Below are positions 1 to 50,285 of a DNA stretch of 64,000 nt, piece by piece. Source of the stretch: a bacterium (GTDB lineage Bacteria > Patescibacteriota > Doudnabacteria > UBA920); contig CP064996.1 in NCBI GenBank assembly GCA_016699995.1, forward strand, positions 528,584-592,583, in the 5' to 3' direction. Position 1 is the stretch's first letter; each line of letters starts with the position of its first letter. The notes beneath the pieces were generated by a model. That model was not told the origin of the DNA. It was given only the letters and a program-made list of their open reading frames with translations, and ran no database searches. Made by a program: the position numbers and the translations under genes.

Positions 1-547
1 TCATATTGCTGCTATCCCCGCTTTCTAATTCGATGATAGAAGCCAACACCAGCACATCATACAAAGACAAGCCCGACTGCCCATCGCCACCTATCGGTTT
101 TAAATTCTCGTATCCAGGGATGATAAACTTATCATCACTAACTGTGACGCCTATAGAAGACATGCGCCTCACAAAATTCTTCAGCATGGTATCTATCACG
201 CTAGCGGGAGTGGCATCTTTGGCAAAGCGATAAGTATCCGGAAACAAGTAACCTTCCAATAAAGTTTTGCCTGGCTTTTGAATAATCGGAAAATTGGTAG
301 TGTCAAAGTTTTCCACCGCTTCCATAAACTGATCTTTGTTAAACATGCCTGCATCTTCCAGCTTTTCCGCAATCTCTTCGGTGTTAAGGCCTTCAATAAT
401 AGTAACCTTAACTTCTTCTGCTTTCTTTTGCATCTCGGCAACGCGCTGGGCCTGGTCGGAGCGATAATCTTTAAGCATCTTAAACATCCCCAGAAATATG
501 AGGATCATAAAAATGAGCAATAAAAACGGCCAGAACTTTCTGATCAT
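1..547 (-). CDS. mltG: endolytic murein transglycosylase MltG/YceG family, N-terminal ~182 aa (gene continues beyond window start)
   Basis: Minus-strand translation from ATG (rc of 545-547) gives MIRKFWPFLLLIFMILIF...LEGYLFPDTYRF, the hallmark MltG motif. TM helix at N-terminus. ORF runs off coordinate 1. Confidence 0.75.
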   Translation of the reverse strand, partial: MIRKFWPFLLLIFMILIFLGMFKMLKDYRSDQAQRVAEMQKKAEEVKVTIIEGLNTEEIAEKLEDAGMFNKDQFMEAVENFDTTNFPIIQKPGKTLLEGYLFPDTYRFAKDATPASVIDTMLKNFVRRMSSIGVTVSDDKFIIPGYENLKPIGGDGQSGLSLYDVLVLASIIELESGDSSNM

Positions 548-713
548 GGATTTATTATAGCATTTTTGATTAGACAGACTTGTCCACAAATTTATTTCAT
601 AATTTAAAAGGCTGCCCTGTTTTGGGTGCATAAGTGACCAGGCTAGAATCTATTTCGACAATCCCTAACTGAATTCCTCCCTGCGGGTAAGGTATATAGA
701 TAAGGATAAGCTA

Positions 714-807
714 GCTTGCACAAAGCCCAGTGTTGTGATAAAAGTATAGGATAAGAAATCCTGATGGATTTCTTAAAATTGCATATTTACAACCAAAAAG
801 GAGGTAA
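714..807. repeat. left arm of ~95-bp inverted repeat; carries 9-4-9 palindrome aagaaatcc-tgat-ggatttctt followed by aaaattgcatatttacaaccaaaaaggaggtaa (RBS) immediately upstream of the 811 start codon
   Basis: Reverse complement of 6645-6737 aligns to 714-807. The distal 57 bp are identical, including the flipped palindrome loop. The proximal part is ~85% identical. Confidence 0.85.
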
Positions 808-810
808 GTT

Positions 811-1347
811 ATGAAATCCAAGAATGAGTATTTTATGGCAGCCAATTCGGAGCCACGTGCAATAATCACAGGGATGACCACTGGCCGTGAATTTTCTGTT
901 CGTGAATATACGTACGGAGTCCTTGTGCCAGACAGCAGTCACCCACTCTCGTGCGTCAGCGTGTCTAACAGCTCGTTGAGCATAGATCTATGGGTTGGAT
1001 GCTCTTGGCAGTGTAGATATTGCCACGTCCAAGACACGCATCAAGATCTCGCAGATCAGGGCACAATGCCCAAAAGACCGAGGCAACGCACTCAGTTCAC
1101 TGTTGATCAAATCATTGATGAACTGATTAAACATCCATTTTTTGTTGCTGATGAGACAATCATCAGCATTGGAACAGCAAGCACTGAACCGTTTGCACCC
1201 GGACCTGTTACTGACAGTACGTTTGAGATTATGGATGCATTCGTGCGTCGAGGTCTTCGAAACCCTTTCTGGATCGTCACTAAAGGCGGTGTTCCGAAAG
1301 GAAAAAAGAAGACATTGCCCGTATTACAAACGCAACACGGGGCCTGA
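811..1347 (+). CDS. radical SAM domain protein (CxxxCxxC; SplB/COG1533-like 'GCxxxCxYC' context), 178 aa
   Basis: WVGCSWQCRYCH motif is C-x3-C-x2-C preceded by G, as in SPL-like radical SAM enzymes. Strong RBS aaaggagg 8 nt upstream. Stop TGA overlaps next ATG (TGATG). Confidence 0.5.
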   Translation: MKSKNEYFMAANSEPRAIITGMTTGREFSVREYTYGVLVPDSSHPLSCVSVSNSSLSIDLWVGCSWQCRYCHVQDTHQDLADQGTMPKRPRQRTQFTVDQIIDELIKHPFFVADETIISIGTASTEPFAPGPVTDSTFEIMDAFVRRGLRNPFWIVTKGGVPKGKKKTLPVLQTQHGA

Positions 1348-2045
1348 TGTTGTCTCTATGTTGGGCAGATAATCCTAATACGATTGAGCCCGCTCGCAAC
1401 AATCGCTTCCTTAACGCAGAAGAGGCAAAAGAGGCTGGCGCTACTATCGCATGGTACATGCGGCCGATAGTTCCTGAATGGAGCGGGAACAGGAATCGCA
1501 TCGAAATGATGATGCTCTGGGCCAAGAAGCACTACGGCAACGTCATTGATATGATCATACCCGGAGGATTGCGTTGGACTGAAGGTATTGAGAATGGACT
1601 GGTGGGAATTCATAAACTCCCCATGCCAAACATTCCACGGGATGACAATGTAAAGATGCTACCTCAAGATCTGATAGACTTTACCTTTTCCTTGAGCGCC
1701 GAACACTTCCCTGGAATTCCTGTATACCTCAAATCCTCTTGCGCACTTACTAGGATGCTCAAGATCCCAAGTATTACTTCGGTTCATGCATTTGCCAAAC
1801 ACGAATGCGAGGAGTCTCGTTGCCCTATTGCTCAGCGACAAATCTGCGCTAACGGAGCAGCATATTCCATGAGCACAGAACGAGCCCAGGCAATATTAGA
1901 TGATCTCGGGATTCCAGCTCATGTCCTGAGCTGGGATATTAACCACGGACTTGTCACTTACCCCGAGATGAACAAGTTCACCTACGCAGTCAGGCAGACT
2001 ATATTCAAACATTTGGCAATGGGAGATTCACATGAAGTTGTATAA
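1347..2045 (+). CDS. hypothetical protein, 232 aa; possibly C-terminal half of a split radical SAM enzyme (translationally coupled to 811..1347)
   Basis: ATG overlaps the upstream stop codon. No recognisable motif. Cys-rich (CPIAQRQIC). Confidence 0.35.
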   Translation: MLSLCWADNPNTIEPARNNRFLNAEEAKEAGATIAWYMRPIVPEWSGNRNRIEMMMLWAKKHYGNVIDMIIPGGLRWTEGIENGLVGIHKLPMPNIPRDDNVKMLPQDLIDFTFSLSAEHFPGIPVYLKSSCALTRMLKIPSITSVHAFAKHECEESRCPIAQRQICANGAAYSMSTERAQAILDDLGIPAHVLSWDINHGLVTYPEMNKFTYAVRQTIFKHLAMGDSHEVV

Positions 2046-3891
2046 TGAAATCAAAGATCACTTCAGAACCTACGGTTTCAACTGGCAAGACAGTGTTCCG
2101 ATCTTGAGTTCAAATCCTAAACTCCTGTTCAATATTTCAGGCGGTGTAATATTCGAAAGCACGATCTCTGATGGAGTGACCCCAGAGAAAGCCCGTGTCG
2201 TTTCGGTGCAAACCTGCCTCAGAACTGATGGCTGGGAAAAGATAGGATACTCAGGACGGCATCATCTGGCATTCGACATGCTAGGCCACTTTTCCCTATA
2301 CGAAGACAAAGAAGACAAGGTGAAAGGTGTGATGATAGAAAGTGCTTGGAACTATTTGACCCAACGTCTGGGCATTAATCCGGGCCTCTTATCGGCAACC
2401 GTTCATCCGCAAGACACAACATCGCAAAAATTTGGAAAAAATTTCGGTGTAAAGACTGCCGCTAACGATGGCAATGTCACTTACACTCCGACCAGAAACA
2501 GATGCGGCGTCCGCACGGGAGATTGTCTGGCAAAATCCGCATACGAATAAATCAATCGAACTCTGGAACTTGGTTTTTACCCAGTTTGAGGGAGATGCTC
2601 TATTCAAATCTCCGTTGGAAACAATCGCTGCCGATTCTGGAGCCAGTATTGATCGCATCGTCACTGCAATCGAATGTAGCCGAAGCGATTATGAAAACTC
2701 CAACTGGAAAGGCATAGTCGAATCAATCACTGAGCGATCCAAAGTTCAAGATCAAGCCATCATGTGTCGCTTAGCCGATCTAGGTAAAGCATCAACGCTG
2801 CTAGTATCTCAAGGGCTTAGACCTGGAAACAAAGCAGCTGAATACGTTCTTCGGAAACTCATCCGAGAGGCTTACATTCTCTGTCGGCAAACCTCGATTC
2901 AATTCGATGAGTTTGCTGCGATATCAGAAAGTCATTGGTCTCCGTCCGCTGCGGTTCAAACCGTACTTATCGAAGAAGTGTCAAAGTTCGAGAAAGGTCT
3001 CGAACGTGGGAAAAGAGAATATCAAAACTCATATCCCGCAAGACAATTCCCTTGTCGAATCGGATATAAAATATCTAGCATCTACGTTCGGCTTTCCAAA
3101 AGCTTTAATCGAACTCGAGGAATCGAAACGAAAGGAGGCGAAATGAAAAATCTCGTTTCCGAACTTGCTCGCATTCTGCGTGAACTACAAGGCTTACAAG
3201 TGCTAGTACATGTCGGATTGAAAAGAGATTCTTCTAAGGACAAAGTCGATCTCTTAGCGGGCTGTGATCAGGGAAGGATTGAAACATATTCCCCCTCATT
3301 GATTCCCTCCTAAGAAAACGATGGCCCGTTGGGAACTTCTCCGTTTGTGACGACAGTGTTCGCGGACCTATCATCAGGTACGGGCGGCATTGCAGTATGC
3401 GATGCTAGTCTGCTTATCGAGCAGGTTCAAGAATGGATAGAAGGCAAAAATTGGGCGGACAACACCGCTCCTGGGCAACTGGATATTGGTTGCCGGAGGC
3501 GTTATGTGGAGACTTGGCAACGGCAGAAACCCTATATGACAAGACTGGCATCAATGATAAATTAAAAAAACTACTTGTTCCCTATCCAGCTTCGCTCTCG
3601 AAATTTATCAGTGAGCTATGCATAGACGAGATCAGGCAAAAACAATCGACATTCAAAATGCTGCACGAAAATGCAACAATCGAACGTCAGCTATGCCTCT
3701 CGGATATCTCGGCTTCGTTGGTGAGACTTGCATTCGCTCGCAGCCACCAATACCTTCGCGGATTCCGCTCACTTGAGAAACAAGCGAAACTGCTTGAGTT
3801 TTCAGATCTGCCTATTTATGGGCTTGCCTTGGAGATTTCAAAGGGCACAAGAGTAAAATCGATGATGAAAAGAATTGAGGAACTACTCTAA
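2032..3891 (+). pseudogene. divergent alanyl-tRNA synthetase-like gene (catalytic + tRNA-recognition region), disrupted by >=2 frameshifts and with degenerate motif 2
   Basis: ORF 2032..2550 has AlaRS N-terminal signatures: LLF, VQTCLR (cf. SQRCVR) and GYSGRHHLAFDMLGHFS (cf. GYTARHHTFFEMLGNFS). ORF 2468..3313 has IELWNLVFTQF (cf. EIWNIVFMQF), a motif-3-like DSGASIDRIV, and RPGNKAAEYVLRKLIREA (cf. PSNEGRGYVLRRIIRRA). ORF 3433..3891 has AETLYDKTGI (cf. AFRLYDTYGFP). The frames are 1, 2, 1. The GPCGPC of motif 2 is replaced by LTLRPETD. Confidence 0.7.
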
Positions 3892-4530
3892 TTATAGAGG
3901 TATACGAAAGTGTGCCTCTTTTTTTATTCAACAAGGGTCTTTTTCCATTTTCAATAAAAATAGCCTGCGAGTTATTTATTCTCTCAACACAGACCTTGTA
4001 TTTTTCTTCAAAAGCTTTTGCTTGTTCCTCAATATCTGAAGAATAGTGCGGTAATACGATAAGGTTTGTGATCCCAAGCCCTGTATAATCTTCGAGACCA
4101 ACCTCGTTTTTATCTGCAGAAACTTCTCCGGCAATTTCGATTGATGGACCAACAATAATACTTCCTGCGCTGACGCCTATATATATCCCATTTCGATCTA
4201 GCAGGCTTTCGATTGATGTCTTAAAGTTTGATTTTCGAGCAAATTTAAGAAGTTTGAAAGTATTACCCCGCAAACATAGATAATAGCGTATTGAGTAAAA
4301 TCCCTATCGGGTTCGGTTTCAAGGTCTATAAAATCAATATGCGAGAACCCCATCTCCACAAATTGTTCCTTGGCGAGTTGAGCGTATTTATTATTTTCTT
4401 TTTCTTCTGCAGCTGTCGTGACTATAGCAACGGAATAATTAATATAATTTAAAAATGAGCCCTTAAACCTTTTGATAACCGGCTCGGAAGAAAATCCAGT
4501 TGATGTTAGAAATATAAAACCTTTAACCAT
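3812..4530 (-). pseudogene. pepE: peptidase S51 (dipeptidase E / PepE-like), frameshifted at a G-homopolymer
   Basis: N-terminal ORF 4198..4530 ends ...AIIYVCGV. C-terminal ORF 3812..4273 reads GNTFKLLK...IYIGVSAGSII (GxSAG serine nucleophile motif). The junction falls in the conserved GGGNT, where the sequence has tgcggggtaat. One more G would restore the frame. Confidence 0.65.
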
Positions 4531-4559
4531 GGCTTCATTTTACATGATTTTTGTAATTT

Positions 4560-4603
4560 TTAAAAAAAGACCTGCCTCGTGGTTTACACAAAGCAGGTCT
4601 GGG
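4560..4603 (-). terminator. rho-independent terminator downstream of the alaS-paralog
   Basis: Minus strand reads cagacctgc-(loop)-gcaggtct followed by ttttttt. Lies 8-50 nt after the stop at 4611. Confidence 0.6.
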
Positions 4604-4610
4604 TATTTTA

Positions 4611-5903
4611 TCACTTCTTAGGTCGGCGTGATACGTTCCGATGATCCTCGATAAGTTTAAGAAACTCCACCTTCGGAAAAGTTATGTCATGACGCTCACA
4701 AAATTCTTCCAGGAGGTCCTCGGGAATACCTATACCGGTTTTTAACGTGAATGCTTGATGTGCATCCAATTCTTTCGCCGCGACGATTTTGTCGAGATAC
4801 TTTCCACTGCGATTCATCAACTTTTCAAAACTGACCCGTTCTTCGCTGATCCAATGTGCGATAACAGATTTGTGACGAAAAGTTAAATCCTTGTTATCAA
4901 TCACTTGGCTAAGAGAATCCACCCACTCTTGGAGAATAGTCAGATCAATTCCTCGTAGAAAGATGCCTATCATCGCTCGCCGTAACGCGCGACGGAGAAG
5001 GTATCCCTCCCCAGTATTGCTCGGAATGATACCCTCGCGAATCATCAAAATCGAAGTTTTGACATGGTCAAGGATAATCCTCGTCCATGGCATGTCGCCA
5101 ATTCGCTGGTTAATAAGAAGGTAAGACGATTCATATTGGTCGATCTCATGAATCGAAGCGCGGTCTTGCAGGATCATGGCAAAACGCTCAAGACCTGCAC
5201 CTGTGTCTACACACTTCATCGGGAGCTGGGAGAAATTCTGTTGTTCATCCTTGAAGTATTGCATGAACACCCCGGCATTCCAGATTTCGATGTGTCGCCC
5301 AGGCACCAACATATCATCCGTCTCCTCCTCAGCAAATTCCTCGCCACGATCAAAGAAGACTTCCGTGCAAGGACCGCATGGGCCGCTGGTTCCCGCCGGA
5401 CCCCAAAAATTATCTACTGGTGGCCTACCAATGATTCGATCCCGCGGCAGGAATTTCTCCCAGATTCGAGCAGATTCTTCGTCGTCCGGAATACCTGGGA
5501 GACTGTCGTCAGCAACGAATACTGTGGCATAGAGACGGCCAGCTGGAATACCAAACCCTTCGGTAATGAGCTCAAAAGCAAATTCGATGGCTCGCTCTTT
5601 GAAGTAGTCCCCGAAAGACCAAGAACCCATCATACGGAAGCTAGTCCCGTGATAGGAATCACCAATGCTTTCGACATCGACAAATCGGATGCAATCCTGC
5701 ACATTGGTCAGACGTGGATAGGGCGGTTTAACTTGGCCAGTAAAATAAGGCTTAAGCGGGGCCATACCAGAGTTAATAAACATAAGGGTCGGGTCATTCT
5801 CGGGGATGATACCCGATTGCTTGATAAGCCGGTGATCACGCTTGAGAAAATAGTCCAGAAAAGTCTGGCGCACCTCCTCAGTGGTCTTAGATGGCAATTT
5901 CAT
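4611..5903 (-). CDS. alanyl-tRNA synthetase paralog, catalytic/aminoacylation domain only (430 aa; no editing or C-Ala domain)
   Basis: Full class-II AlaRS core: ENDPTLMFINSGM, VQDCIRFVDVESIGDSYHGTSFRMMGSWSFGDYF, motif 2 GPAGTSGPCGPCTEVFFD, IEIWNAGVFMQYF, motif 3 DTGAGLERFAMIL, YLLRRALRRA. Stops after the tRNA-recognition region. Own RBS (ggag) and own terminator. The start overlaps the AKR stop by 17 nt. Confidence 0.8.
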   Translation of the reverse strand: MKLPSKTTEEVRQTFLDYFLKRDHRLIKQSGIIPENDPTLMFINSGMAPLKPYFTGQVKPPYPRLTNVQDCIRFVDVESIGDSYHGTSFRMMGSWSFGDYFKERAIEFAFELITEGFGIPAGRLYATVFVADDSLPGIPDDEESARIWEKFLPRDRIIGRPPVDNFWGPAGTSGPCGPCTEVFFDRGEEFAEEETDDMLVPGRHIEIWNAGVFMQYFKDEQQNFSQLPMKCVDTGAGLERFAMILQDRASIHEIDQYESSYLLINQRIGDMPWTRIILDHVKTSILMIREGIIPSNTGEGYLLRRALRRAMIGIFLRGIDLTILQEWVDSLSQVIDNKDLTFRHKSVIAHWISEERVSFEKLMNRSGKYLDKIVAAKELDAHQAFTLKTGIGIPEDLLEEFCERHDITFPKVEFLKLIEDHRNVSRRPKK

Positions 5904-6673
5904 AATTCTTCTCCTTTAAGGTGCCAATATTTCGTGTGATTTGCTCCTCTGTTGTCATACCAATAACGACAGATGATCCAAGTGCTAACGCATTTTGTAT
6001 AATCATTTCAGCGGAGCGTGTACTAGTGAGCAATTTTCCTTGTTTGAACAAACTTCTCAGTAGAACCTCCTTCTTAGAATCCAGTAGATATGGAAGCTGT
6101 TGAAGGACCCAAGTCTGCTCAATATTAAAGGGAGCTTCCACTATGTCGATGTACGGCAAAACCGTTTCAGAGACAGGGTATAAAAAATTGTCAGGTAAAG
6201 AGATTCCTACACGCTTAACAACACCTTCATTCTTGAGTCCATTCAGGCATTCTAGGATTGCTTCCTGCTTTCTGATGACCATGTCGGCAACCAGTTATGC
6301 AAAAGCACTGCATCAATAGAAGATCGACGCAACCTTTCCAAGGATCCGTACAAACTTCGATGTATATTGCCTTGTGAGTAAAATCTTTCAATCGGTTCAG
6401 GTCTTCTAGATTCGGTTTGATTGCTGCGGGAATTTTAGTCACAATGGTCACATCTTCGGGCAGACATGCGCCGAGCATTGCTTCGACTTTGCCTCCCCCA
6501 TAGACGGCCGCCGTGTCAAAACGGCGAATGCCAGACCTAACAGCGAAAAGCAAAAGCGATTCGATGTACTCAGTAGACAAATTTTTGAATTGCCCACCAA
6601 GTTGCCACGTACCGAAGTAGAAGCCGATTAGACCAATCCATAAATTACCTCCTTTTTGGTTGTAAATATGCAA
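5887..6673 (-). pseudogene. aldo/keto reductase, split into two overlapping ORFs (frameshift near 6282)
   Basis: 6227..6673 has LIGFYFGTWQLGG...FDTAAVYGGG, the AKR N-terminal signature. 5887..6282 has ILECLNGLKNEGVVKRVGISLPDN, the AKR 'GkirylGvSN' region. The two reading frames overlap by 56 nt. Confidence 0.6.
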
Positions 6674-6737
6674 TTTTAAGAAATCCTGATGGATTTCTTA
6701 TCCTATACTTTACCACAATACTGAGCCTCGTGCAAGC
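6645..6737. repeat. right arm of the ~95-bp inverted repeat (inverted copy of 714-807), supplying RBS/start context for the minus-strand AKR gene
   Basis: See left arm. The palindrome plus aaaaaggagg module faces inward on both sides. Confidence 0.85.
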
Positions 6738-6757
6738 CCGCCCACCCTCATCGCAAT

Positions 6758-6789
6758 AATTTAAGGGCTGCCCTGTTTTGGGGCAGCCC
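6758..6789 (+). terminator. hairpin gggctgccc-tgttttg-gggcagccc; terminator-like; a direct-repeat copy of 601-626
   Basis: Perfect 9-bp stem, then gtgtttgttttt. Similar sequence aatttaaaaggctgccctgttttggg at 601-626. Confidence 0.45.
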
Positions 6790-6820
6790 GTGTTTGTTTT
6801 TGTATATTAGTTAGCGAATG

Positions 6821-7513
6821 CTAAGCCTTGCGAGAAATTCCGTCTTCGACATGGTCCAGCACTTTTCGCGCATGGTCCTTGCCCCCGAGGCCAAACGCCA
6901 AACCGCCGGCAATTGCAATCATGGCGATTACAGCACGGAACAGGTCGAGCAAGAAAGCTTTGGCAATTTGCAATTCGGACAGCGCAGCTATTAAAGCAAA
7001 AATGATAACTGCCCAGCGAGTGATAGAACCAAGCATATGGCCAGATTCAAAACCGCCTGCTTTAACGGTGCCTTTTACAACATCGCCTAAGAAGTTAGCG
7101 GCAATAATACCGAGCAACATAATTGCCATAGCAATCACTACATGGCCGGCATAGCCCAAAACGTCTGCATAGAAGAAGTTGGTAATATCGGAGAGTCCCA
7201 AAATATCTGCAGCTGCGATGATGCTAGCCAAGATGAAGAACCACTTAATTACAAACTGAACGATGCTAGAAATTTTGATAGTGCGGCCGCTGCGTTCGGA
7301 TAAACGCTTTAAGCCGAGCTGATCCCCGAGCCCGTCGATACCGACAGACACCAATGCTCTGCGAAGAACATTGCCTAAGAAGATACCAATAATCCAACCG
7401 AGCAACAAAACAATTGCAGCAGCTAAGATGTTTGGCAAAAACTGAATTACCCGATCGTACAGGTTATATACAGAATCCTGAACTACGGTTGGATAATCGT
7501 TATAATAATTCAT
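6821..7513 (-). CDS. integral membrane protein with repeated conserved-TM-helix motifs (MscS-associated TM_helix-like), 230 aa
   Basis: Multiple hydrophobic helices with repeated ILGLSDITNFF / AIIFALIAALSELQIA patterns. Confidence 0.4.
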   Translation of the reverse strand: MNYYNDYPTVVQDSVYNLYDRVIQFLPNILAAAIVLLLGWIIGIFLGNVLRRALVSVGIDGLGDQLGLKRLSERSGRTIKISSIVQFVIKWFFILASIIAAADILGLSDITNFFYADVLGYAGHVVIAMAIMLLGIIAANFLGDVVKGTVKAGGFESGHMLGSITRWAVIIFALIAALSELQIAKAFLLDLFRAVIAMIAIAGGLAFGLGGKDHARKVLDHVEDGISRKA

Positions 7514-7627
7514 TGATTGTTCCTTTCTTGCATTATGCAGCCGTACGAACTGCGCAATGCGATTTTTTAGCCTCCGGTAATCGACCTATGCCGGAAAATT
7601 AAACATAAAAAAACAACAGGAAAATAC

Positions 7628-8071
7628 CTATTGTTCGCCGTAAATAAGAATAGAAAAATCTCGATTGCGACCCCCATCGCATTCCACAAAGAAAATGCTC
7701 TGCTTAGCGCCTAAAGCCAATTCGCCATTTAAGATCGGCACAGTCTCGGACGTACCCAGCAAAAACGACTTCACATGAGCATGGCCATTAGAGCGTTCGT
7801 TTACGTCTACTTCGCTGCGCATCTCGAACACGTCGTGGCCGTAGTTGTCTTCTATCGGCACCAAACGATACAACATCTTCATGATGTCCTGCTGCAACAT
7901 AGCTTCGTTGTGAGTTAAGCGAATGCTAGCCGTGGTGTGAGGATTATAAACCAGCGCCATCCCGCTTTTTACGCCGCTATCAACAACGGCCGCTTTAGCG
8001 TGGCTGGTTATGTCTATAAGCTCAAATTGTTTTTTTGACATCACTTCAACGGTTTTGTGAAAGATGGCCAT
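7628..8071 (-). CDS. yjbQ: YjbQ/UPF0047 family protein (secondary thiamine-phosphate synthase-like), 147 aa
   Basis: Conserved HTTASIRLTHNE, NGHAHVKSFLLG, LALGAKQSIFFVECDGGRNR blocks typical of UPF0047. Confidence 0.75.
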   Translation of the reverse strand: MAIFHKTVEVMSKKQFELIDITSHAKAAVVDSGVKSGMALVYNPHTTASIRLTHNEAMLQQDIMKMLYRLVPIEDNYGHDVFEMRSEVDVNERSNGHAHVKSFLLGTSETVPILNGELALGAKQSIFFVECDGGRNRDFSILIYGEQ

Positions 8072-8129
8072 AGAGATTTTTACAGCAAGGCTTTATGCCT
8101 GCCTGTATATATTATACCACGGACAAGCC

Positions 8130-9842
8130 TTATTTTTGGGCTTCGACCGGCGGTGCAGGGGTTTCGACGGGTGCGGTGGCTGACTGAGGAGCCAATTCTT
8201 GAGCTAAATCGAGCGTAGAGGCCTTTAAATCGCTCTTAATTGGGAGGGAAAAGGCAAAGGTGGAACCCAAGCCTGGCCCGTCGCTTTCGGCCCAAATTTT
8301 GCCATTGTGCTGCTCGATGATAACTTTTGCCACATACATGCCCAAGCCCAGCCCGGTAGCATGGGTGGCCGAGTCTTTCCCGCGGGAATATTTGTTAAAG
8401 ACGTTTTCGAGCTCGCTCTTTTCGATGCCTTTGCCGGTATCCTTAACGCGTACGGTAATATTTTTGTCATCGGCTTCGATACCGATTTGAATATCCCCTA
8501 CTTTGGAATATTTAATGGCGTTGTCTATCATGTTATTCACAACCTGCCGAACTTTTTCGTGATCCACGATTATATCGGGAATAGGCATCTTTGGCGGAGT
8601 GTAAACCAAGTGCTGCTTCTTCATTTGAGCAAGCGGTTCGAGCTGCTCTACCAACACCTTCACCATCGGCTCCAGATTGAAGTTCTCAAAGAAGAATTCT
8701 AACTTGCCGCGCTCGATGCGAGAAGCATTAAGAAGATCGTCGATGGTAGAGATCTGTGCTTCGTTGGTAACGTTGGTACGGCTAAGGGCGGCTTTAAGTT
8801 CTTCGCTGAGCGGGCCGAAATCGCCATTAAGTACCGCTCCTAAATACCACTTAATGGTTGCAGGAGGCGTGCGCAACTGATGACTAGCGATGGAGATGAA
8901 CTCTGCACGAGCTTTGTCCAGCGCTTTGAGCTGTTCATTAGCGGCAGCGAGCTCTTTAGATAATACTTCTAACTCTTCGCGCTGTTTGACTTCGCGGATG
9001 ACGGAACGGACCAGGAGGATGCCAACACTAAGCACCAATAAAAAGATGCTCGAACGAACAATGATCGCTAAAATATCATCGGAAACAATTACTTCGAACA
9101 GAGTTGCAATAGCTAGTACGAATACCAATACTTCTGTAGATACAACTTTTACATTTAGCAAATGATGTTTGAATATCGCATAAGCGGCTGCAAACGCGAA
9201 GGGAAAAACAAAGACCGCGCTTAACGGAATGAAAGATGTATTGTTAAGCACGGTAGGAAAAATAAAATTGAGCACGATAATACAGGCGAACATTACGATA
9301 ATGCCGCCCATGAGATTCCATAACGGTTTTCTTTCTACTGATGTCGCTCTATTTATTTTCTTTGCCAGGCTAACAATTCCGCCGATCACCATAGCCACAG
9401 CAAAAGCGCCAAAGAACATTATTCCAGGCTCTACCACTGGCTGAGCAACACTTCCAGGAGTAAAAATAATGGAAGAAAATACAAAGGGTGTTAACGTAAA
9501 CATCGCCACCACAAATGCGACGATTAAAAGAATATAGTACCTCTTAGGGCTTATTTGTAATTTTTCACTCGGAAAATTGTATAGCAGCAACAAAAGTGTT
9601 AGAGATTGAAACACAGCAAAAAACAAAACCAGCCTAATAATCCATAGGGCCAATACTGGATTACTGACTTGATAATTTAAGTAATTAACGATACTCCAAG
9701 CGCTGCTGGTAAGACTAAAAAGCAAAAAGAAAATATTGGTAGCGCTCCTTGTGTTTTGGAAAAAGACAATAAATCCCAAAATGGTCACTGCTGCAACAGA
9801 AACGCCAACGGATATTAAATCTGCGTTTAAAAAAATATTCAT
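8130..9842 (-). CDS. sensor histidine kinase with N-terminal multi-TM sensor domain, 570 aa
   Basis: H-box SIASHQLRTPPATI. HATPase_c blocks DNAIKYS, VKDTGKGIEKSELENVF, GLGLGMYVAKVI. About 8 TM helices at the N-terminus. Confidence 0.85.
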   Translation of the reverse strand: MNIFLNADLISVGVSVAAVTILGFIVFFQNTRSATNIFFLLFSLTSSAWSIVNYLNYQVSNPVLALWIIRLVLFFAVFQSLTLLLLLYNFPSEKLQISPKRYYILLIVAFVVAMFTLTPFVFSSIIFTPGSVAQPVVEPGIMFFGAFAVAMVIGGIVSLAKKINRATSVERKPLWNLMGGIIVMFACIIVLNFIFPTVLNNTSFIPLSAVFVFPFAFAAAYAIFKHHLLNVKVVSTEVLVFVLAIATLFEVIVSDDILAIIVRSSIFLLVLSVGILLVRSVIREVKQREELEVLSKELAAANEQLKALDKARAEFISIASHQLRTPPATIKWYLGAVLNGDFGPLSEELKAALSRTNVTNEAQISTIDDLLNASRIERGKLEFFFENFNLEPMVKVLVEQLEPLAQMKKQHLVYTPPKMPIPDIIVDHEKVRQVVNNMIDNAIKYSKVGDIQIGIEADDKNITVRVKDTGKGIEKSELENVFNKYSRGKDSATHATGLGLGMYVAKVIIEQHNGKIWAESDGPGLGSTFAFSLPIKSDLKASTLDLAQELAPQSATAPVETPAPPVEAQK

Positions 9843-10855
9843 ACCCTAACTATAACCTTATCCAAATCTATTCTAGGACTAAAATGAGGCATATCTGGAC
9901 CATAACCGATTCTAAAAAACATTTGAGGTCTCGTACTGATGCCTAAAGCTTGTTTAACCAATTTATAATTATCTCCTATTTCGATAGGTGCGCCCATTAT
10001 TCCAATTCTTAAACCTAAACCCTCCGCTTTTAAAGCTATTTTCTCGAAAGACATACCTGCCTTAACCCAAGCGCTTTCGTTATCTTCTACAGTACTGATA
10101 ACACCATACACTGGTGCATTCTTAAGCCACTCTTCGTGCATCTTGGCTTGAAAGTTTTGCAAGTTAAAATTTCTAATTGCAAATGGTAATAGGTAAGAAA
10201 TTAATTTTGGCACGCCGATCGTGTAGCCAGGCATACCGTCCCGATACTTAACAGAACTTGGCTTTACCCAAGCTGATAATTCGGTAGTAAACTTCTTATC
10301 TGCAAAAGCTTCTTTAACCGATTTAGAAACAATATCTCTAATGGACTGTTTCTGATTTTCTTGGCTCACAAAAGTTGAAACTATTCCCTCTAAGCACTCA
10401 GCAGCCATTTCATCCAATATGGATTGGTCTATTCGTCTGTCTTCAAGAGGCAGTCGGTTAGTTTTACGGTTTACCAGATTATCAAAAGCTTTCTGATCGA
10501 TTGAAGATGATGCTAGAGATTGATAATAAATTGTAAAAATAGTGTTCTTATCAAAATCGAAATTATACTCTGCATCATACTTCAAGCCTAAAGAATCTGA
10601 TCCGTGCAGTAAATTCTGGATCGCTGCGCCGATGCTCAGAAAAAGCTGGCGGTTATTTTCGTCGGAATAAGGTAATTTTCGATCGAAGTTTGCTTTGACA
10701 GTTATTGTTTTATCTCGAATCTCAAAAAGCCATGGTTGAGTATTATGGCTCGAGGGTGCTAAAGATGCTAATAGAACCAAAAAATCCAATCTTGCAGAAT
10801 CTGTTTGTAATTGGTCGTATTTTTCTATTTTTATTTCTGTACGAGGATTGTACAT
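9839..10855 (-). CDS. nitroreductase-family protein (tandem/extended nitroreductase fold), 338 aa
   Basis: SSHNTQPW (SxHNxQPW nitroreductase signature) near the N-terminus. Start overlaps the HK stop (ATGA-type coupling). Confidence 0.6.
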   Translation of the reverse strand: MYNPRTEIKIEKYDQLQTDSARLDFLVLLASLAPSSHNTQPWLFEIRDKTITVKANFDRKLPYSDENNRQLFLSIGAAIQNLLHGSDSLGLKYDAEYNFDFDKNTIFTIYYQSLASSSIDQKAFDNLVNRKTNRLPLEDRRIDQSILDEMAAECLEGIVSTFVSQENQKQSIRDIVSKSVKEAFADKKFTTELSAWVKPSSVKYRDGMPGYTIGVPKLISYLLPFAIRNFNLQNFQAKMHEEWLKNAPVYGVISTVEDNESAWVKAGMSFEKIALKAEGLGLRIGIMGAPIEIGDNYKLVKQALGISTRPQMFFRIGYGPDMPHFSPRIDLDKVIVRV

Positions 10856-10880
10856 TTAATTTATTATACCACAAAATTGG

Positions 10881-10904
10881 AAAAACCGGCCGGGCCGGTT
10901 TTGT
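10881..10904 (-). terminator. rho-independent terminator right after the ammonia-lyase remnant stop
   Basis: Minus strand: aaaaccggcccggccggttttt plus T-run. Confidence 0.6.
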
Positions 10905-11180
10905 TTAATTCTGAATTAAATCCTTTTTTAGTTTTTCAATCTCTTTGTATATCAAAGCGTCGTCAGCATAGAAAGGAACCTTTGATCTCACATATTCATA
11001 AGTTTCAGCATTGCCTTTACCAGCCTTTAATGGACTTCGCAATTCAACAGCCTGGGCAGCTGCCGCTAACTCGACTACCAAAATTTCAAATGCCATGTTT
11101 ATAATGTCTCTGCATTTTCGAGCAGCGGTCGTCGCGAAGCTTACGTAGTCTTCCTGGTTAGCAGAAGTAGGGATAGAAAC
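10905..11180 (-). pseudogene. hutH: C-terminal remnant (~90 codons) of an aromatic amino-acid (histidine/phenylalanine) ammonia-lyase; 5' part missing
   Basis: Minus-strand frame reads IPTSANQEDYVSFATTAARKCRDIINMAFEILVVELAAAAQAVELR..., matching the HAL/PAL C-terminus (SIPTSANQEDHVSMG..AARK; AIELLAAAQALD). The frame opens at a stop immediately adjacent to the res gene end at 11180. Confidence 0.6.
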
Positions 11181-13780
11181 TATTCAAGATCATCCAATTC
11201 TTCTAATAAATTTTCTAATTCACACCTAAATTTTTCTTGGCCTTTTAATATTCTCCCATCCTTCAAATACTCAAAAAATGTAGAATATCCTTCTGGACTC
11301 AAGAAATGAAAAATGTATTTTTGTTTAATTTTATTTTCCTCTAATTTATTGTTCAACCTCTCAAAATGTTCTTTCGCATATTTGTATTTTGCCTTGTTTT
11401 CATCGCTGTCGTCTTTGTCCGCTTTTATCTCAACAACAACAAAATAATCTACATTATCTTTTGTGATCTTGATAAAGAAGTCAGGATTAAACATCCCAAT
11501 CTTTTGGTGATTTGATGGTCTCCATGAATACTCAATGCCATAAAATCCACGATCCCGAGATTTTAACCACGCATCAATTTTCTCCGCAATATCCTTTTTG
11601 CAAAGGTTCTCGATGAATCTTCGTTCTGGTTCTGCGTTAGAAAAAACAACATTGACGGGGGTCTTAAACAAAAACTCATTTTGTTCCTTGTCGGCACTCT
11701 TGGGGAAACTCTCATCTTCTTTGAGCTTCTGCATTATGTTTCGTTGTTCATCGTCAAAGATCTCATTCTCCCAGTTGTTTGTGTAGAATAATGAATATCC
11801 ACGCCTAAAATTACCAACACCAGAACTTTCGCGGATGATATTTTTTGTAGAAATAACAACGGGTTCATTTACTTTTAATTGTGGCACAACTGTCTTGCTC
11901 TTTTTTCGCAGAAGTGTAGCAAAGGTATTGAGAATCTTATTGACATTTTTTTCGATGATTTGATCACCCTTAATACCAACGTTTTTCATGGATTTGAGAA
12001 TGATCTCTCGGATTTTTTCTTTCGGTGGGAGGTTATTTTGTGTGTACTGCTCTTCCCCGAGTTTCAATATTCTTCCTTCCCAATCTCTAATCTCAAATTC
12101 CTCATAGATTCTGTCCACCACTTCTTGAACAGTCCAAGTTCCGTATTCAATAACATAATTCTTCTCCCGAATATCTTTCGCAGTTATTGATTCATAAGAG
12201 GTGCCTTTTTCTGTTTGTATCACTTGAGAATCCAATTTGATACCTTCTTTTTCAATACGAGAATAATTAACAACTGGATTGGGTTTGTGTTCTACTTCCA
12301 CTTCTTCTTTGGTGTAATCAAGATTGTAAACATCAAAATGATATTTTGATCGGTCATCATTCTTAACAATCTCACTGATTATTCGAGTTTCGATTTCCAA
12401 CACTTCATCAACAAGAGCTTTTATACCTCTGCTCCATGCGTCATGGTTAAAAACAATGATTTTTGGTTGAGGAGTTGTATATGCCTCTGGTAAACGCAAA
12501 CCGCGCCCCAATACTTGTGCGATAAGAAGTTTAGAATTAAACGCCTTATCTTCCCATGGAACGATTTGAAAAACGTTTTTAACATCCCAACCTTCTGTAA
12601 GCATCGAGACAGAAACAATCCATTCAGTCGGATTTTCTCTATGATCAACTGTTTTCAATTTTGATAAATTGCCTTTATGATCCTTATGAGAAGTAACAAT
12701 CAAAACTTTTTCTTCAATACTTTCACGAGGTCGCCCCTCTCTCTTTTCAAGGAAATCAAGCAAATCTTCCATTAAACTTTTTGCCTTGGAAATATCTTTA
12801 GTGATCAAAATTGAAAGAGGTTTGATTTTTGGGTACTTATCAATATTCTCCTTGTGGTTTTGATATATTTTTTGGAACTTTTCATCAGTCCCCGAACTGT
12901 CATCTTTTTGTACATATTCAATATTCTTTACTATTCTATCTTCAATGGCTTCGCGCAAAGAATAGCGATAAATAACATCGTTAAAGTACTCGTTGTCATG
13001 ATACGCTGTACCAGTAAAACCAAGAATGTAACGAAAGTTGAAATCTAGATTTAATAAAAACTCCTTCCACCGCTTCAAACCTTGCGCTTCTGTTGTATTG
13101 CCAGATATTTTATTAAAAATATGGTGAGATTCATCATTAAGCACTAAAACGCGCTCGCCTTGTCTTTGGAAACTATCCTTAATCGATGACCCAGTTGTTT
13201 CATAAACTGCATGGATATTTTCAACACAAATACTTCCGTTTTTGACAGTGATATTTGCATCAACAATGCTTGGGTTTTTATAAAGAGCATTCGCTGGTAT
13301 CGATTTTTTGATTCGTGCATTCCCACTCAAATCCTCAAACTTCTCCAACAGTCCGTCTTCAATCGTCAAAGATGGGCAGAGTACCAAAACTTTATCTACC
13401 AAGCCTAACCCAAGCATGATTTGTGCCACACCATAAATTACATACGATTTTCCTGTACCAGTCGCTAAATCAATGTTTGCAAAAAGTTTATTAGGTAGCT
13501 GTAAATGGTGATGGTAATCGCTAAGGGTCGGATACTTTTCTTGCAGTTCGGGATTTTTATTGTAATTCTCATGTACTAAATCCTCAGTAGTAACATAACG
13601 CCCAGATGCAAGAAAGATAACCGCGTGTTTTATTGCTTCCTTTTGGTATTCTCTGTCTACACACAAGGTATCCAAAAAAGAATCCCATGCGCCCAAATCT
13701 AACTTTGTCGGATCATAGTTTTGATTCACTTTTAGAACCAAGTCTTTTTGTTTGTAAGTTTTAATATCCTGCATAGTCAT
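11180..13780 (-). CDS. res: Type III restriction endonuclease Res subunit (SF2 helicase + C-terminal PD-(D/E)xK nuclease), 866 aa
   Basis: Walker A LATGTGKSYVIYGV. DEAH-like VLNDESHHI. Helicase C motifs. C-terminal DFFIKITKDNVDYFVVVEIKADKDD nuclease-like motif. About 33% GC. Confidence 0.85.
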   Translation of the reverse strand: MTMQDIKTYKQKDLVLKVNQNYDPTKLDLGAWDSFLDTLCVDREYQKEAIKHAVIFLASGRYVTTEDLVHENYNKNPELQEKYPTLSDYHHHLQLPNKLFANIDLATGTGKSYVIYGVAQIMLGLGLVDKVLVLCPSLTIEDGLLEKFEDLSGNARIKKSIPANALYKNPSIVDANITVKNGSICVENIHAVYETTGSSIKDSFQRQGERVLVLNDESHHIFNKISGNTTEAQGLKRWKEFLLNLDFNFRYILGFTGTAYHDNEYFNDVIYRYSLREAIEDRIVKNIEYVQKDDSSGTDEKFQKIYQNHKENIDKYPKIKPLSILITKDISKAKSLMEDLLDFLEKREGRPRESIEEKVLIVTSHKDHKGNLSKLKTVDHRENPTEWIVSVSMLTEGWDVKNVFQIVPWEDKAFNSKLLIAQVLGRGLRLPEAYTTPQPKIIVFNHDAWSRGIKALVDEVLEIETRIISEIVKNDDRSKYHFDVYNLDYTKEEVEVEHKPNPVVNYSRIEKEGIKLDSQVIQTEKGTSYESITAKDIREKNYVIEYGTWTVQEVVDRIYEEFEIRDWEGRILKLGEEQYTQNNLPPKEKIREIILKSMKNVGIKGDQIIEKNVNKILNTFATLLRKKSKTVVPQLKVNEPVVISTKNIIRESSGVGNFRRGYSLFYTNNWENEIFDDEQRNIMQKLKEDESFPKSADKEQNEFLFKTPVNVVFSNAEPERRFIENLCKKDIAEKIDAWLKSRDRGFYGIEYSWRPSNHQKIGMFNPDFFIKITKDNVDYFVVVEIKADKDDSDENKAKYKYAKEHFERLNNKLEENKIKQKYIFHFLSPEGYSTFFEYLKDGRILKGQEKFRCELENLLEELDDLE

Positions 13781-13783
13781 ATT

Positions 13784-15748: not shown

Positions 15749-16279
15749 ATAAATTCTATTTGAGTCCCAAAAAAGTTAATCGAGATAAGTGAAACCATTT
15801 TACCATAAATCACACCTTAAATAAAGGGTTTTAGAGTGACCAAACCATCATTCGGCGTCATTAATCCGTTGCTCGCAAATGCAGAACATACTAAACTGAC
15901 ACCTGACGAGTTTAAAACAACTAAGAAAGTGAGATGCTGTTCTCTGCTCCCCCTAAATCGACAGAACAAGATGAACCGGAAGCTTTTTCTATCTATTCCG
16001 AAATAAGGGAAATGATGAATATGACATATAGGAAAAGCCTACATACCGAGAGATTGTAGAGAATTCATTCAGCAAAGAACTCCCGTGCCATTGAATATTA
16101 TCTGTTTCGCAGGAAGAAGCCCCAAAAACAGCTCGGCAACCTTGGGATTACTTTAGCTTCCACACACCGAATCCTTCTTTTAATTTATGATAATAGCACG
16201 TATATTAATACAGTGAAATTTGGCTCTCACGAGGAATAGCTTGTACAAACCATTTTTAATATAATTTTAATTTAATTTC

Positions 16280-28695: not shown

Positions 28696-29217
28696 CTAGT
28701 CGCCCTTTTCGCCTGCGTCTTTGGCGAACTCAACGCTGTCTCCGCCGTAAACGACATAGTCATTGTTGACTTCCTGGCCATTAACGTAGGCTTTAGCCGC
28801 CGGAGAAATACTCAAAGCATCTCCCAGCTTGCCGCGCAGAGCGCGAATGGTCATGCCGCTCACGTTAAGCGACTTCTGGTGAGCGCCGCTGACAACTTGG
28901 ACAGCGGTGGCACCCGTGGCTTCGGCCAAACCGGTAGACTCGAACGCGATGCGGTCGCCGGCCTGGATCGTGTAATTATCACCGATCTGCTCGCCCGAAA
29001 CAAACGCTTTGTGGTGCTTGCCCAGGCTGAGGCTGGCGCCGTACTGGTCGCGAATGAAAAAGATCGATTTACCGACTGCGTCGGACTCAGGGATGTTGAT
29101 CACATTCCCGTCACACGACACCTCGATAACGTTATCCCTCGTTTCATCAAACAGATCCGCAAACATGTTACCGCCTGCTTCCGTAGTTTCCATATCAAAT
29201 TCGTTTTCATTTGCCAT
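28696..29217 (-). CDS. tandem ThiS/MoaD-like beta-grasp (ubiquitin-like) protein, two ~65-aa Ubl repeats after a ~30-aa leader, 173 aa
   Basis: Repeats ...ASLSLGKHHKAFVSGEQIGDNYTIQAGDRIAFESTG and ...DALSISPAAKAYVNGQEVNNDYVVYGGDSVEFAKDAG match the ThiS consensus (vavNGe.v.....l.dGD.vei). Preferred start ATG at 29217 (MANENEF) with GGAGG ~15 nt upstream, 8 nt after the E1 stop. The track ORF extends to 29343 but overlaps E1. Confidence 0.6.
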   Translation of the reverse strand: MANENEFDMETTEAGGNMFADLFDETRDNVIEVSCDGNVINIPESDAVGKSIFFIRDQYGASLSLGKHHKAFVSGEQIGDNYTIQAGDRIAFESTGLAEATGATAVQVVSGAHQKSLNVSGMTIRALRGKLGDALSISPAAKAYVNGQEVNNDYVVYGGDSVEFAKDAGEKGD

Positions 29218-29224
29218 AGTTCTT

Positions 29225-49871: not shown

Positions 49872-50285
49872 TTAAATTTTCATCAATCCGTAAAGCTTGA
49901 GCAAATAGTTGCGCTGCTTATAATCCACAAATTTTGCGGCCATGGCCAATTTAAATTCCGCACCATGGTTTAAGTAAATCAGATGCAGGCATTCATGAAA
50001 TACAACCAGTTCCACTAATGATTGCGGAAGCAACTTAAGCTTAGTATTAAAAGACAAAACCTTATGTTCGCTGCAGCTGCCCCAGCGGCTCTTCATAGTC
50101 CGAAACTTAAGCTGCTTGTAATCTGTCTGAAGTTCGGTCGTGTATTGCGCTACCAAATTAGCCACCCGCAGTCGAAACAAGTTTAAAGGCACATAAGGCA
50201 GTGGGTTTTGTTTATACTCAGCCTTAAGCTTTTTTAAATCTAACTGTAAAGACGGGTTCATATTTTTGATCGTTTTCATCGACAA
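49872..50285 (-). CDS. YgjP/DUF45-like (SprT/WLM-type) predicted zinc metallohydrolase, short form, 137 aa
   Basis: HECLHLIYLNHGAEF (HExxH) near the C-terminus, in the DUF45 context. Confidence 0.5.
   Translation of the reverse strand: MSMKTIKNMNPSLQLDLKKLKAEYKQNPLPYVPLNLFRLRVANLVAQYTTELQTDYKQLKFRTMKSRWGSCSEHKVLSFNTKLKLLPQSLVELVVFHECLHLIYLNHGAEFKLAMAAKFVDYKQRNYLLKLYGLMKI

Follow-up and report, generated by a model that had tools for sequence, protein, structure and literature searches.

We analysed a 64,000-nt stretch of a Doudnabacteria genome (Patescibacteriota; GenBank contig CP064996.1, positions 528,584 to 592,583; hereafter the window), in which an alanyl-tRNA synthetase (AlaRS)-like gene on the plus strand, 2032-3146, is broken by several frame changes. 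The best explanation for the whole, which we hold with somewhat better than even confidence, is that this gene encodes an intact and conserved AlaRS paralog, was broken in the assembly, and belongs to a gene module acting outside translation. The original prediction had offered two readings of the locus, a decaying alaS duplicate or a repurposed aminoacyl-tRNA synthetase (aaRS)-like enzyme whose frameshifts are assembly errors. The second fits both a 99.6%-identical contig in which the gene is intact and a conserved gene neighbourhood that points to a non-translational role, and the decaying, frameshifted alaS copy was mostly an assembly artefact combined with misreadings.

The evidence came from L001, a 5,903-bp contig from an independent assembly of run SRR11674018, which encodes a 371-aa paralog (P0001) and aligns to window positions 778-6674 at 99.63% identity. 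All six L001 genes were intact, encoding a radical S-adenosylmethionine (SAM)-like protein (411 aa), the AlaRS paralog (371 aa), a 250-aa protein, a peptidase of family S51 (202 aa), an AlaRS core (430 aa; hereafter the mini-AlaRS) and an aldo-keto reductase (AKR; 250 aa). Window and L001 differed by 6 substitutions and by 15 indel events that together add or remove 16 bases. Five of these bases lie in the paralog gene, each a separate indel, and the other eleven in neighbouring genes (Table 1). Beyond its five indels the paralog gene showed just one synonymous change, at 2052, and after correction its product was exactly P0001 (371 aa), because L001 translates to that protein. In this pseudogene test the frame was broken in the window only, and the disruption of the paralog was not reproduced in the 99.63%-identical contig. 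The GenBank record of the genome, a single 943,189-bp contig, lists the fragments as hypothetical proteins in their own right, among them QQS22548, QQS22549, QQS22551 and QQS22552 (locus tags IPM19_02855, 02860, 02870 and 02875).

Reading frame and family of the AlaRS paralog

Two plus-strand open reading frames (ORFs) showed significant homology to AlaRS, as had been predicted. ORF 2032-2550 matched Pfam PF01411 with E 4e-20 (profile positions 8-137) and the NCBIfam alaS model with E 2e-21 (76 bits), and ORF 2468-3313 matched the same models with E 6.8e-17 (profile positions 192-370) and E 7.5e-17 (61 bits). The conserved blocks reported earlier (LLF, QxCxR, GYxxRHHxxFxMLGxFS, ExWNxVFxQF, DSGxxxxR and YVLRxxIRxA) were likewise present, and they are invariant or nearly invariant across the family described below. 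The paralog ends at a TGA, 3144-3146, that overlaps the ATG at 3143 of the following gene, with AAGGAGG upstream of that ATG; the AlaRS-like gene therefore spans 2032-3146 and a new gene begins at 3143. The tail of the paralog lies in a third frame. ORF 2907-3146, which had no Pfam or NCBIfam match and was assigned via intact homologues, holds IKYLASTFGFPKALIELEESKRKEAK, the counterpart of AlaRS LYDTYGFPxDL, and alignment to P0001 placed the short frame-1 stretch KLISRKTIPL in the paralog as well.

These boundaries correct several details of the original prediction. The window does need frame changes, but they lie at 2425, 2436, 2517, 3023 and 3048 and not near ~2455 and ~3320-3430, the latter interval falling in the next gene, which has indels of its own (3290, 3363 (2 nt) and 3450). 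ORF 3433-3891, taken as a third part of the AlaRS gene, carried no AlaRS signal and is the C-terminal portion of that next gene (250 aa). The LYDxxG read in this ORF was a chance match, the real counterpart of LYDTYGFP being YLASTFGFP, in the third frame within 3012-3146. The stretch LTLRPETD, described as a degenerate motif 2, was an out-of-frame translation in which frame 2 had been entered too early, and in the true frame the site reads NDGNVTYTPTRNRCGVRTEIVWQNP. The loss of GPCGPC had been noted correctly, as this loop is truly absent from the paralog family, but it had been mislabelled as motif 2. In AlaRS the class II motif 2 is the QxCxR...RHHxFFEMLG hairpin, not GPCGPC, and a hairpin of this type is well conserved in the family. 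Alignment to the family gave NVTYTPTRNRCGVRTEIVW, 19 positions long, as the in-frame loop region, and 7 of these 19 positions (N, P, R/K, G/A, R, E, I/L) recurred in 11 of the 12 aligned members.

A search with a 370-aa three-frame reconstruction as query matched 166 proteins, mostly of 355-390 aa, with P0001 as the best match (371 aa, 100% coverage). The relatives came from many Patescibacteria and some Firmicutes-labelled genomes, and several were labelled "alanine--tRNA ligase-related protein" (Paceibacterota, Buchananbacteria, Uhrbacteria and Saccharibacteria records); 24 loci of GTDB species-representative genomes matched at an identity of at least 34%. Among eight Paceibacteria-type genes, dN/dS was 0.09-0.16 in 27 of 28 pairs and 0.28 in the least diverged pair; the family is under purifying selection (dN/dS ~0.1). 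In a neighbour-joining tree the paralogs formed a clade of their own, separate from the canonical AlaRS clade and from that of the mini-AlaRS, and the paralog and mini-AlaRS clades branched in parallel into the same major subgroups. Literature searches on the family, on DUF4037 and on AlaRS paralogs from the candidate phyla radiation (CPR) turned up no description of the paralog family or its cluster.

Alignment of 58 members revealed invariant residues along the whole protein, namely Q60-x-C62-x-R64, H77-H78, F81-x-M83-x-G85-H86-F87, E163, E176-x-W178-N179-x-V181-F182, D201-S202-G203, R208, P264 (of PGN), R274 (of YVLRK) and G354 (of STFGFP). The residues that bind ATP and the amino group in AlaRS were retained (Arg64, Glu163, Glu176-x-Trp178-Asn179, Asp201-Ser-Gly203 and Arg208), and so was the acceptor-stem (tRNA-recognition) domain. 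Comparison of twelve members with canonical and mini AlaRS showed that AGM of motif 1 is replaced by SGG (ISGG in 12/12 aligned members), NFW...GPCGPC(S/T)E by N-x5-P-x3-[RK]-x-[GA]-x-R-x-E (NVTYTPTRNRCGVRTE in the window gene), and GNFSF by GHF together with a 4-residue insertion. Asn303 and Asp400 of E. coli AlaRS read the G3:U70 base pair (PMC8583063); in the family the Asn303 equivalent is mostly retained and the Asp400 equivalent is Ser or Thr. Given the retained residues, the dN/dS values and the separate clade, the gene is best read as an old, functional paralog, neither a decaying copy nor an alaS. A motif-2 loop shorter by 4 residues was also considered as a peculiarity of the family and was rejected, because many bacterial canonical AlaRS share the short loop.

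Origin of the indels

The five frame-breaking indels in the paralog and the eleven indel bases in its neighbours are probably consensus errors of a long-read assembly that was locally unpolished, a technical origin that we infer from the spectrum of differences. The single closed contig of ~0.94 Mb suggests that long reads were assembled. Between the window and L001, indel events outnumbered substitutions 15 to 6; 7 of the 15 indel events lay in runs of at most 3 bases, and about half in runs of at least 4. Complex differences were clustered (2425/2436, 3363-3364, 6264/6269 and 6399-6402), and one apparent substitution was a boundary shift of adjacent runs, GGAAA to GGGAA. In natural mutation substitutions dominate and slippage prefers long runs; an indel-rich, clustered spectrum differs from this and is what long-read consensus error typically produces. 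We favour a technical origin because indels outnumber substitutions, short runs are hit, complex differences cluster, and the boundary shift is present. In the flank 6657-8693, comparison with a second contig of run SRR11674018 revealed two further deletions, in T-runs, which fit the same origin, although both are intergenic; beyond 778-8693, error density was judged from ORF integrity alone.

Several observations weigh against assembly error and favour its strongest rival, true pseudogenisation in the strain, under which the radical-SAM, paralog, kanamycin nucleotidyltransferase (KNTase)-like, S51 and AKR genes would have been inactivated and the mini-AlaRS retained by selection. The 2.0-kb block 4266-6263, which includes the mini-AlaRS gene, showed no difference at all, against 21 events in the other ~3.9 kb, and such a clean block could also be expected if the strain had lost accessory genes yet kept an essential AlaRS. 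In the two blocks of the cluster that carry them, indels reach ~3.8 events per kb, far denser than the long intact ORFs across most of the remaining window would imply, and the error density is thus not uniformly high. Furthermore, 4 of the 6 substitutions were non-synonymous, two of which hit conserved residues of the radical-SAM protein, one invariant and the other nearly so, and both flank indels spared coding sequence. We nevertheless consider pseudogenisation unlikely, although it is the alternative that survives best. The excess of indels over substitutions, the share in runs of 3 bases or fewer and the complex clusters do not resemble natural slippage, and every other member of the paralog family that we examined was intact. 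Selection on AlaRS would also fail to explain the clean block, because at both ends it continues for ~350 nt past the mini-AlaRS and so covers parts of the S51 and AKR genes that are supposed to be dead. The block may reflect window-wise polishing, or selection.

Programmed frameshifting was rejected, as it would need five shifts in one gene and the near-identical copy reads through without any. A decaying recent alaS duplicate is next to impossible, even though two AlaRS-like genes stand 1.5 kb apart with one of them broken in the window: a tblastn search of the neighbouring 430-aa AlaRS (4611-5903) against 1-4600 found nothing significant, and recent duplication was therefore rejected, while the family lies outside all sampled AlaRS in the tree with a branching that parallels the mini-AlaRS clade, its orthologues are intact at dN/dS ~0.1, and a near-identical intact copy exists.

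In a ~6-kb stretch of a public closed genome, five of six genes thus appear as fragmentary "hypothetical proteins", the most likely cause being uncorrected indels, and pseudogene counts and claims of decaying aaRS genes from such assemblies need to be checked against reads. Error correction reveals a strongly conserved, uncharacterised AlaRS paralog that keeps the adenylate residues and the tRNA domain and in which the substrate loop is rebuilt.

The surrounding gene cluster

The six genes and their flanking elements are listed in Table 1, where the coordinates of the S51 and AKR genes were converted from L001.

Table 1. Genes, candidate regulatory elements and paralog lesions of the cluster (lesions are given as L001 to window; indels are those of the window relative to L001)
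Feature	Position	Strand	Details
Putative promoter/5' untranslated region, copy 1	715..813	+	palindrome AGAAATCC-TGAT-GGATTTCT at 754-773; ribosome-binding site GGAGG at 800-804; ATG at 811; heads the plus-strand operon
Radical-SAM enzyme gene	811..2045	+	411 aa when intact; a 1-base deletion at 1308 leaves two pieces, 811-1347 and 1347-2045
AlaRS-core paralog gene	2032..3146	+	371 aa once five indels are corrected; aminoacylation and tRNA-recognition domains only
Paralog lesion	2425		A6 to A5
Paralog lesion	2436		A5 to A6
Paralog lesion	2517		GG to GGG
Paralog lesion	3023		A5 to A4
Paralog lesion	3048		C4 to C3
KNTase-like / DUF4037 gene	3143..3891	+	250 aa when intact; indels at 3290, 3363 (2 nt) and 3450; 3433-3891 is the C-terminal part
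Terminator-like hairpin and T-run	3896..3919	+	ends the plus-strand operon
Peptidase S51 (PepE/cyanophycinase-like) gene	3924..4530	-	202 aa when intact; frame broken by a deletion at 4265; second deletion at 3939, near the 3' end
Terminator-like hairpin, 14-bp stem, and T-run	4568..4600	-	directly after the mini-AlaRS stop codon
Mini-AlaRS gene	4611..5903	-	430 aa, intact in the window; aminoacylation and tRNA-recognition domains
AKR gene	5887..6641	-	250 aa when intact; overlaps the mini-AlaRS start; indels at 6264, 6269, 6402 and 6624
Putative promoter/5' untranslated region, copy 2	6642..6735	-	palindrome at 6679-6698; heads the minus-strand AKR-mini-AlaRS unit

The radical-SAM protein gave weak matches to Pfam Radical_SAM and to the NCBIfam Rv2578c, PA0069 and spore-photoproduct-lyase families, of which it is a predicted distant relative. 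It carries the CxxxCxxC motif and four more invariant Cys residues. Its AlphaFold2 model (pLDDT 93.7) returned only generic radical-SAM enzymes in a fold search (QueE, LipA and BioB), and no specific function is therefore indicated. For the 250-aa protein (AlphaFold2 pLDDT 89), the top Foldseek match was ANT(4') (6p01/1kan; E 8.5e-6, TM 0.59, over the whole length), and LinB was also found. An invariant Leu takes the place of the second catalytic carboxylate, and nucleotidyl transfer by this protein is therefore doubtful. ORF 3433-3891 had no Pfam or NCBIfam match, and a PDB sequence search with the radical-SAM and 250-aa proteins returned nothing useful.

The mini-AlaRS has the canonical GPCGPCTE loop and lacks editing and C-Ala domains. 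It matched Pfam with E 2e-103, scored 355 bits with the alaS model against a cut-off of 457, and shows 40-43% identity to full-length AlaRS across their N-terminal halves. The strand of its motif-2 region reads YHGTSFRMMGSWSF against the canonical RHHTFFEMLGNFSF, and EIWNAGVF holds one extra residue. In the tree it belongs to a small clade of mini-AlaRS that adjoin the paralog in Patescibacteria; a Woesebacteria genome (L067) has a 577-aa small AlaRS instead. A PADLOC search with all cluster proteins gave no match, and the cluster is therefore not a described defence system.

The plus-strand unit comprises the radical-SAM, paralog and 250-aa genes, the minus-strand unit the AKR and mini-AlaRS genes, and S51 appears to be a separate transcription unit. 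Positions 715-813 and 6735-6642 hold nearly identical copies of ~100 nt on opposite strands, each ending in AAGGAGGTAAnTTATG, which form an inverted repeat flanking the six-gene cluster. A strong ribosome-binding site is present in each copy, as is a palindrome of 8-4-8 layout, AGAAATCC-N4-GGATTTCT, whose four central nucleotides read TGAT in one copy and the reverse complement, ATCA, in the other. Because both units start with this same upstream region, the paralog is likely co-regulated with the mini-AlaRS in the window, and the shared region would act as a promoter/operator; a generic sigma-70 scan called no promoter at 715-813. An Rfam search of 1-9000 gave no match, and the shared 5' region is therefore no known riboswitch or T-box. 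Many public short-read contigs with cluster genes are ~5.9 kb long, a size that would fit assemblies breaking at the upstream repeat in many samples.

We fetched 79 loci from species-representative genomes and screened 28 loci with the six L001 proteins (the 24 matching at 34% identity or above plus four additional loci, some redundant). The neighbourhood of the paralog was conserved: of the 28 loci, 26 had the radical-SAM gene, 25 the AKR, 24 the 250-aa (KNTase-like) protein, 24 a peptidase of family S51 or S66, and 14 a 430-aa-type mini-AlaRS. Three arrangements recurred: the Paceibacteria type ([mini-AlaRS] AKR, radical SAM, paralog, 250-aa protein, S51), the Saccharibacteria type, in which the paralog is convergent with the 250-aa protein, radical SAM, AKR and mini-AlaRS, and that of gut Bacilli- or Clostridia-labelled genomes (250-aa-AKR fusion, radical SAM, S66, paralog), where the paralog stands without an adjacent mini-AlaRS. 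Gene fusions also connect the partners with one another, in L014 (radical SAM with DUF4037, 642 aa) and L009 (250-aa protein with AKR, 493 aa). The S66 peptidase matched the muramoyltetrapeptide carboxypeptidase model under the cut-off (E 7e-30 and 2e-26), and Mur-ligase genes adjoin the cluster in L005 and L007. No tRNA gene was consistently linked to the cluster: the window contains none, and those at other loci differ in both identity and location.

In Thermoactinomyces sp. DSM 45892 (L011, FNPL01000003.1, 5614-16300) and Priestia megaterium (L012, JARRUG010000135.1), the same radical-SAM, AKR and S51 genes are grouped, joined in Thermoactinomyces by a 257-aa protein homologous to the 250-aa one (hhalign 98.8%). 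They are accompanied by a condensation-like protein, a major facilitator superfamily (MFS) transporter and a phosphopantetheine carrier protein, and by an aaRS paralog of class II with a match (E 4e-20) to the amino acid--[acyl-carrier-protein] ligase model. Both loci contain an ATP-grasp ligase, with a second nearby in L011, and L012 contains a MazG gene. The aaRS paralog of this cluster occupies the position that the AlaRS paralog has in Patescibacteria. The gene set has the apparent make-up of a small-molecule or peptide biosynthetic cluster, and it looks uncharacterised.

Some cluster-bearing records (L021, L024-L033 and L005) are labelled Gammaproteobacteria, Bacteroidales, Muribaculaceae, Bacilli or Clostridia. 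At least L021, which under its Gammaproteobacteria label consists of one 1.34-Mb contig, probably belongs to Patescibacteria and is mislabelled, because its cluster proteins are 63-82% identical to those of L001, which represent the lineage of the window.

Elsewhere in the window, three regions deserve mention. On the minus strand at 49872-50574, two ORFs overlap on the same strand, the downstream one matching only the C-terminal half of a YgjP-like metallopeptidase profile (113-205 of 207), and the assembly probably holds a further frameshifted gene here. At 28696-29968, also on the minus strand, a 247-aa ThiF-family ORF overlaps a 215-aa ORF with weak C-terminal ThiS/ubiquitin-like matches; the two are either a frameshifted fusion or a pair of E1-like and ubiquitin-like genes. 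The G+C content of 10001-16000 is ~0.36 against ~0.45 elsewhere, and this segment, with minus-strand ORFs at 11180-13780 (866 aa) and 13784-15748 (654 aa), may be a foreign island.

Proposed role and comparison with known systems

Taken together, the homology and neighbourhood data lead us to give about even chances to the view that the paralog is not a translational AlaRS and performs the amino-acid-handling step of the radical-SAM/KNTase-like/AKR/S51-or-S66 module, which in Patescibacteria is often co-located with a mini-AlaRS and in the window is seemingly co-regulated with it. In the mechanism that we propose, the radical-SAM, KNTase-like and AKR proteins would make or modify a small-molecule acceptor, and the paralog would attach alanine (the default guess) or another small amino acid to this non-ribosomal acceptor. 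The amino acid could be transferred directly from an enzyme-bound aminoacyl-adenylate, a route favoured by the retention of Arg64, Glu176, Asn179, Asp201 and Arg208, or from an aminoacyl-tRNA made by the adjacent mini-AlaRS, as AcmF does with AcmD, a route favoured by retention of the tRNA-recognition domain and by an AlaRS being linked to the paralog. The S51/S66 serine peptidase would then take the amino acid off again, either for activation or for self-protection. Such a logic would mirror AcmD/AcmF/AcmE of ascamycin biosynthesis. In Streptomyces sp. 80H647, AcmF, a truncated AlaRS-like enzyme, moves Ala from Ala-tRNA to a nucleoside sulfamate, AcmD is an extra AlaRS, and AcmE is a hydrolase that removes the alanine (PMC12945691).

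Some points count against this proposal. Unlike AcmF, the paralog retains Asn179, Asp201 and the ATP-binding arginines, and it may therefore simply aminoacylate a tRNA; the mini-AlaRS may be the organism's only AlaRS. Two Clostridia-labelled loci (L032 and L033) pair the paralog with an S66 peptidase only, and the radical-SAM trio is therefore not obligatory. In addition, no carrier protein, tRNA gene or acceptor-defining enzyme was consistently present in the Patescibacteria loci.

A more specific version of the proposal, which we regard as speculative and improbable as it stands, is that Patescibacteria and some Firmicutes share a small, broadly inherited pathway whose AlaRS-derived enzyme alanylates a small molecule built by the trio, giving an alanyl-conjugated antimetabolite or an aaRS-inhibitor-like "Trojan horse". 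The mini-AlaRS, co-transcribed and deviant in sequence, would then be the source of Ala-tRNA, a self-resistant target, or both, and the S51/S66 peptidase would confer immunity or activate the product.

Under a translational role, the paralog would be a specialised second synthetase that loads a small or non-canonical amino acid onto tRNA-Ala or a different tRNA, or it would serve as partner subunit to the mini-AlaRS, in which the tRNA-binding C-Ala domain is missing. Such a role would explain why all adenylate-forming residues are conserved together with a tRNA-recognition domain bearing the PGN and YVLRK motifs, why a mini-AlaRS is often adjacent in Patescibacteria with both clades resolving the same subgroups in the neighbour-joining tree, and why the two proteins deviate in complementary ways, the paralog lacking NFW/GPCGPC and the mini-AlaRS having YHGTSFRMMGSWSF for RHHTFFEMLGNFSF. 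We hold such a role to be improbable, however, as the gut Bacilli- and Clostridia-labelled loci have the paralog but no mini-AlaRS beside it, and the steadiest neighbours of the paralog are the peptidase and the radical-SAM/AKR/KNTase-like trio, which in Firmicutes stand beside carrier-protein-based non-ribosomal machinery. Moreover, the equivalent of Asp400, a reader of G3:U70 (PMC8583063), is Ser/Thr, and no dedicated tRNA gene is linked.

Still less probable is a cell-wall role, in which the paralog and an S66 peptidase (of the LD-carboxypeptidase family) or S51 would add and remove alanine on peptidoglycan stem peptides or precursors. The minimal pair of paralog and S66 would suit it, with the below-cut-off matches to the muramoyltetrapeptide carboxypeptidase model, and so would the Mur-ligase genes beside the cluster, but that adjacency is confined to two lineages. 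We also know of no part played by radical-SAM, AKR or KNTase-like proteins in peptidoglycan peptide chemistry, and the S66 family includes non-cell-wall enzymes such as MccF.

The preferred reading, an amino-acid-handling enzyme outside translation, concerns a module that is common to very small-genome Patescibacteria and to cultivable Firmicutes (Priestia and Thermoactinomyces). Genomes of ~1 Mb rarely retain six genes without need. Since cultivable carriers exist, the function is directly testable. If the ascamycin-like logic is true, it would widen the known uses of aaRS paralogs and mini-AlaRS enzymes; if an alanylated small molecule is indeed made, the CPR would gain its first natural-product pathway built on an aaRS paralog, and the AcmD/F/E logic a second, mechanistically distinct relative.

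Compared with canonical alaS (TIGR00344, PF01411), the paralog is homologous over AlaRS residues ~8-400. P0001 matched the Pfam profile at positions 8-402 with E 3e-45 and the AlaRS structure 9jc7 in PDB with E 5e-28, and QxCxR, RHHxxFxMLG, ExWNxVF, D-S/T-G...R, PGN and YVLRK are kept. P0001 scored only 163 bits against the curated cut-off of 457 for the TIGR00344 equivalog. PF01411 was its sole Pfam match, and the protein ends at residue 371, just past YLASTFGFP, without editing and C-Ala domains. It also lacks AGM and the NFW...GPCGPC loop and has Ser/Thr at the Asp400 equivalent. Judged from its sequence, the family is not an alaS.

Natural AlaRS forms without C-terminal domains are known. 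The mini-AlaRS of Tupanvirus lacks the conserved residues that read G3:U70 and still charges tRNA-Ala (PMC10036535), and "small-AlaRS" forms have been reported for CPR bacteria (bioRxiv 10.1101/2023.05.29.542759). The paralog resembles them in its truncation, but they are active translational enzymes, and their better analogue in the window is the 430-aa mini-AlaRS. The amino acid:[carrier protein] ligases (NCBIfam NF005479) are, like the paralog in the preferred reading, class II aaRS paralogs outside translation, and one takes the equivalent position in the Thermoactinomyces/Priestia cluster. They descend from SerRS, have no tRNA-recognition domain and take a phosphopantetheinyl carrier protein as substrate, whereas the paralog core is of AlaRS type. 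No PP-binding carrier gene was found in the Patescibacteria loci, and carrier and SerRS-type ligase are both present in the Firmicutes cluster. The paralog family is not an amino acid:carrier-protein ligase.

By the active-site criterion, the family is not of the AcmF type either. AcmF has lost most of the residues that activate ATP and Ala and carries N219Q and D232E, whereas the paralog keeps Asn179, Asp201, both arginines and Glu176 invariant in the 58 members. The partners differ as well (radical-SAM, KNTase-like and AKR proteins versus nucleoside-sulfamate enzymes), as do the fold of the hydrolase (S51/S66 versus the alpha/beta-hydrolase AcmE) and the hosts (Patescibacteria and Firmicutes versus Streptomyces). 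AcmF is nevertheless the closest precedent: compared by description, both proteins consist of aminoacylation and tRNA-recognition domains only and form a clade separate from canonical AlaRS, and AcmD can be likened to the 430-aa mini-AlaRS (14/28 loci) and AcmE to the S51/S66 peptidase (24/28 loci).

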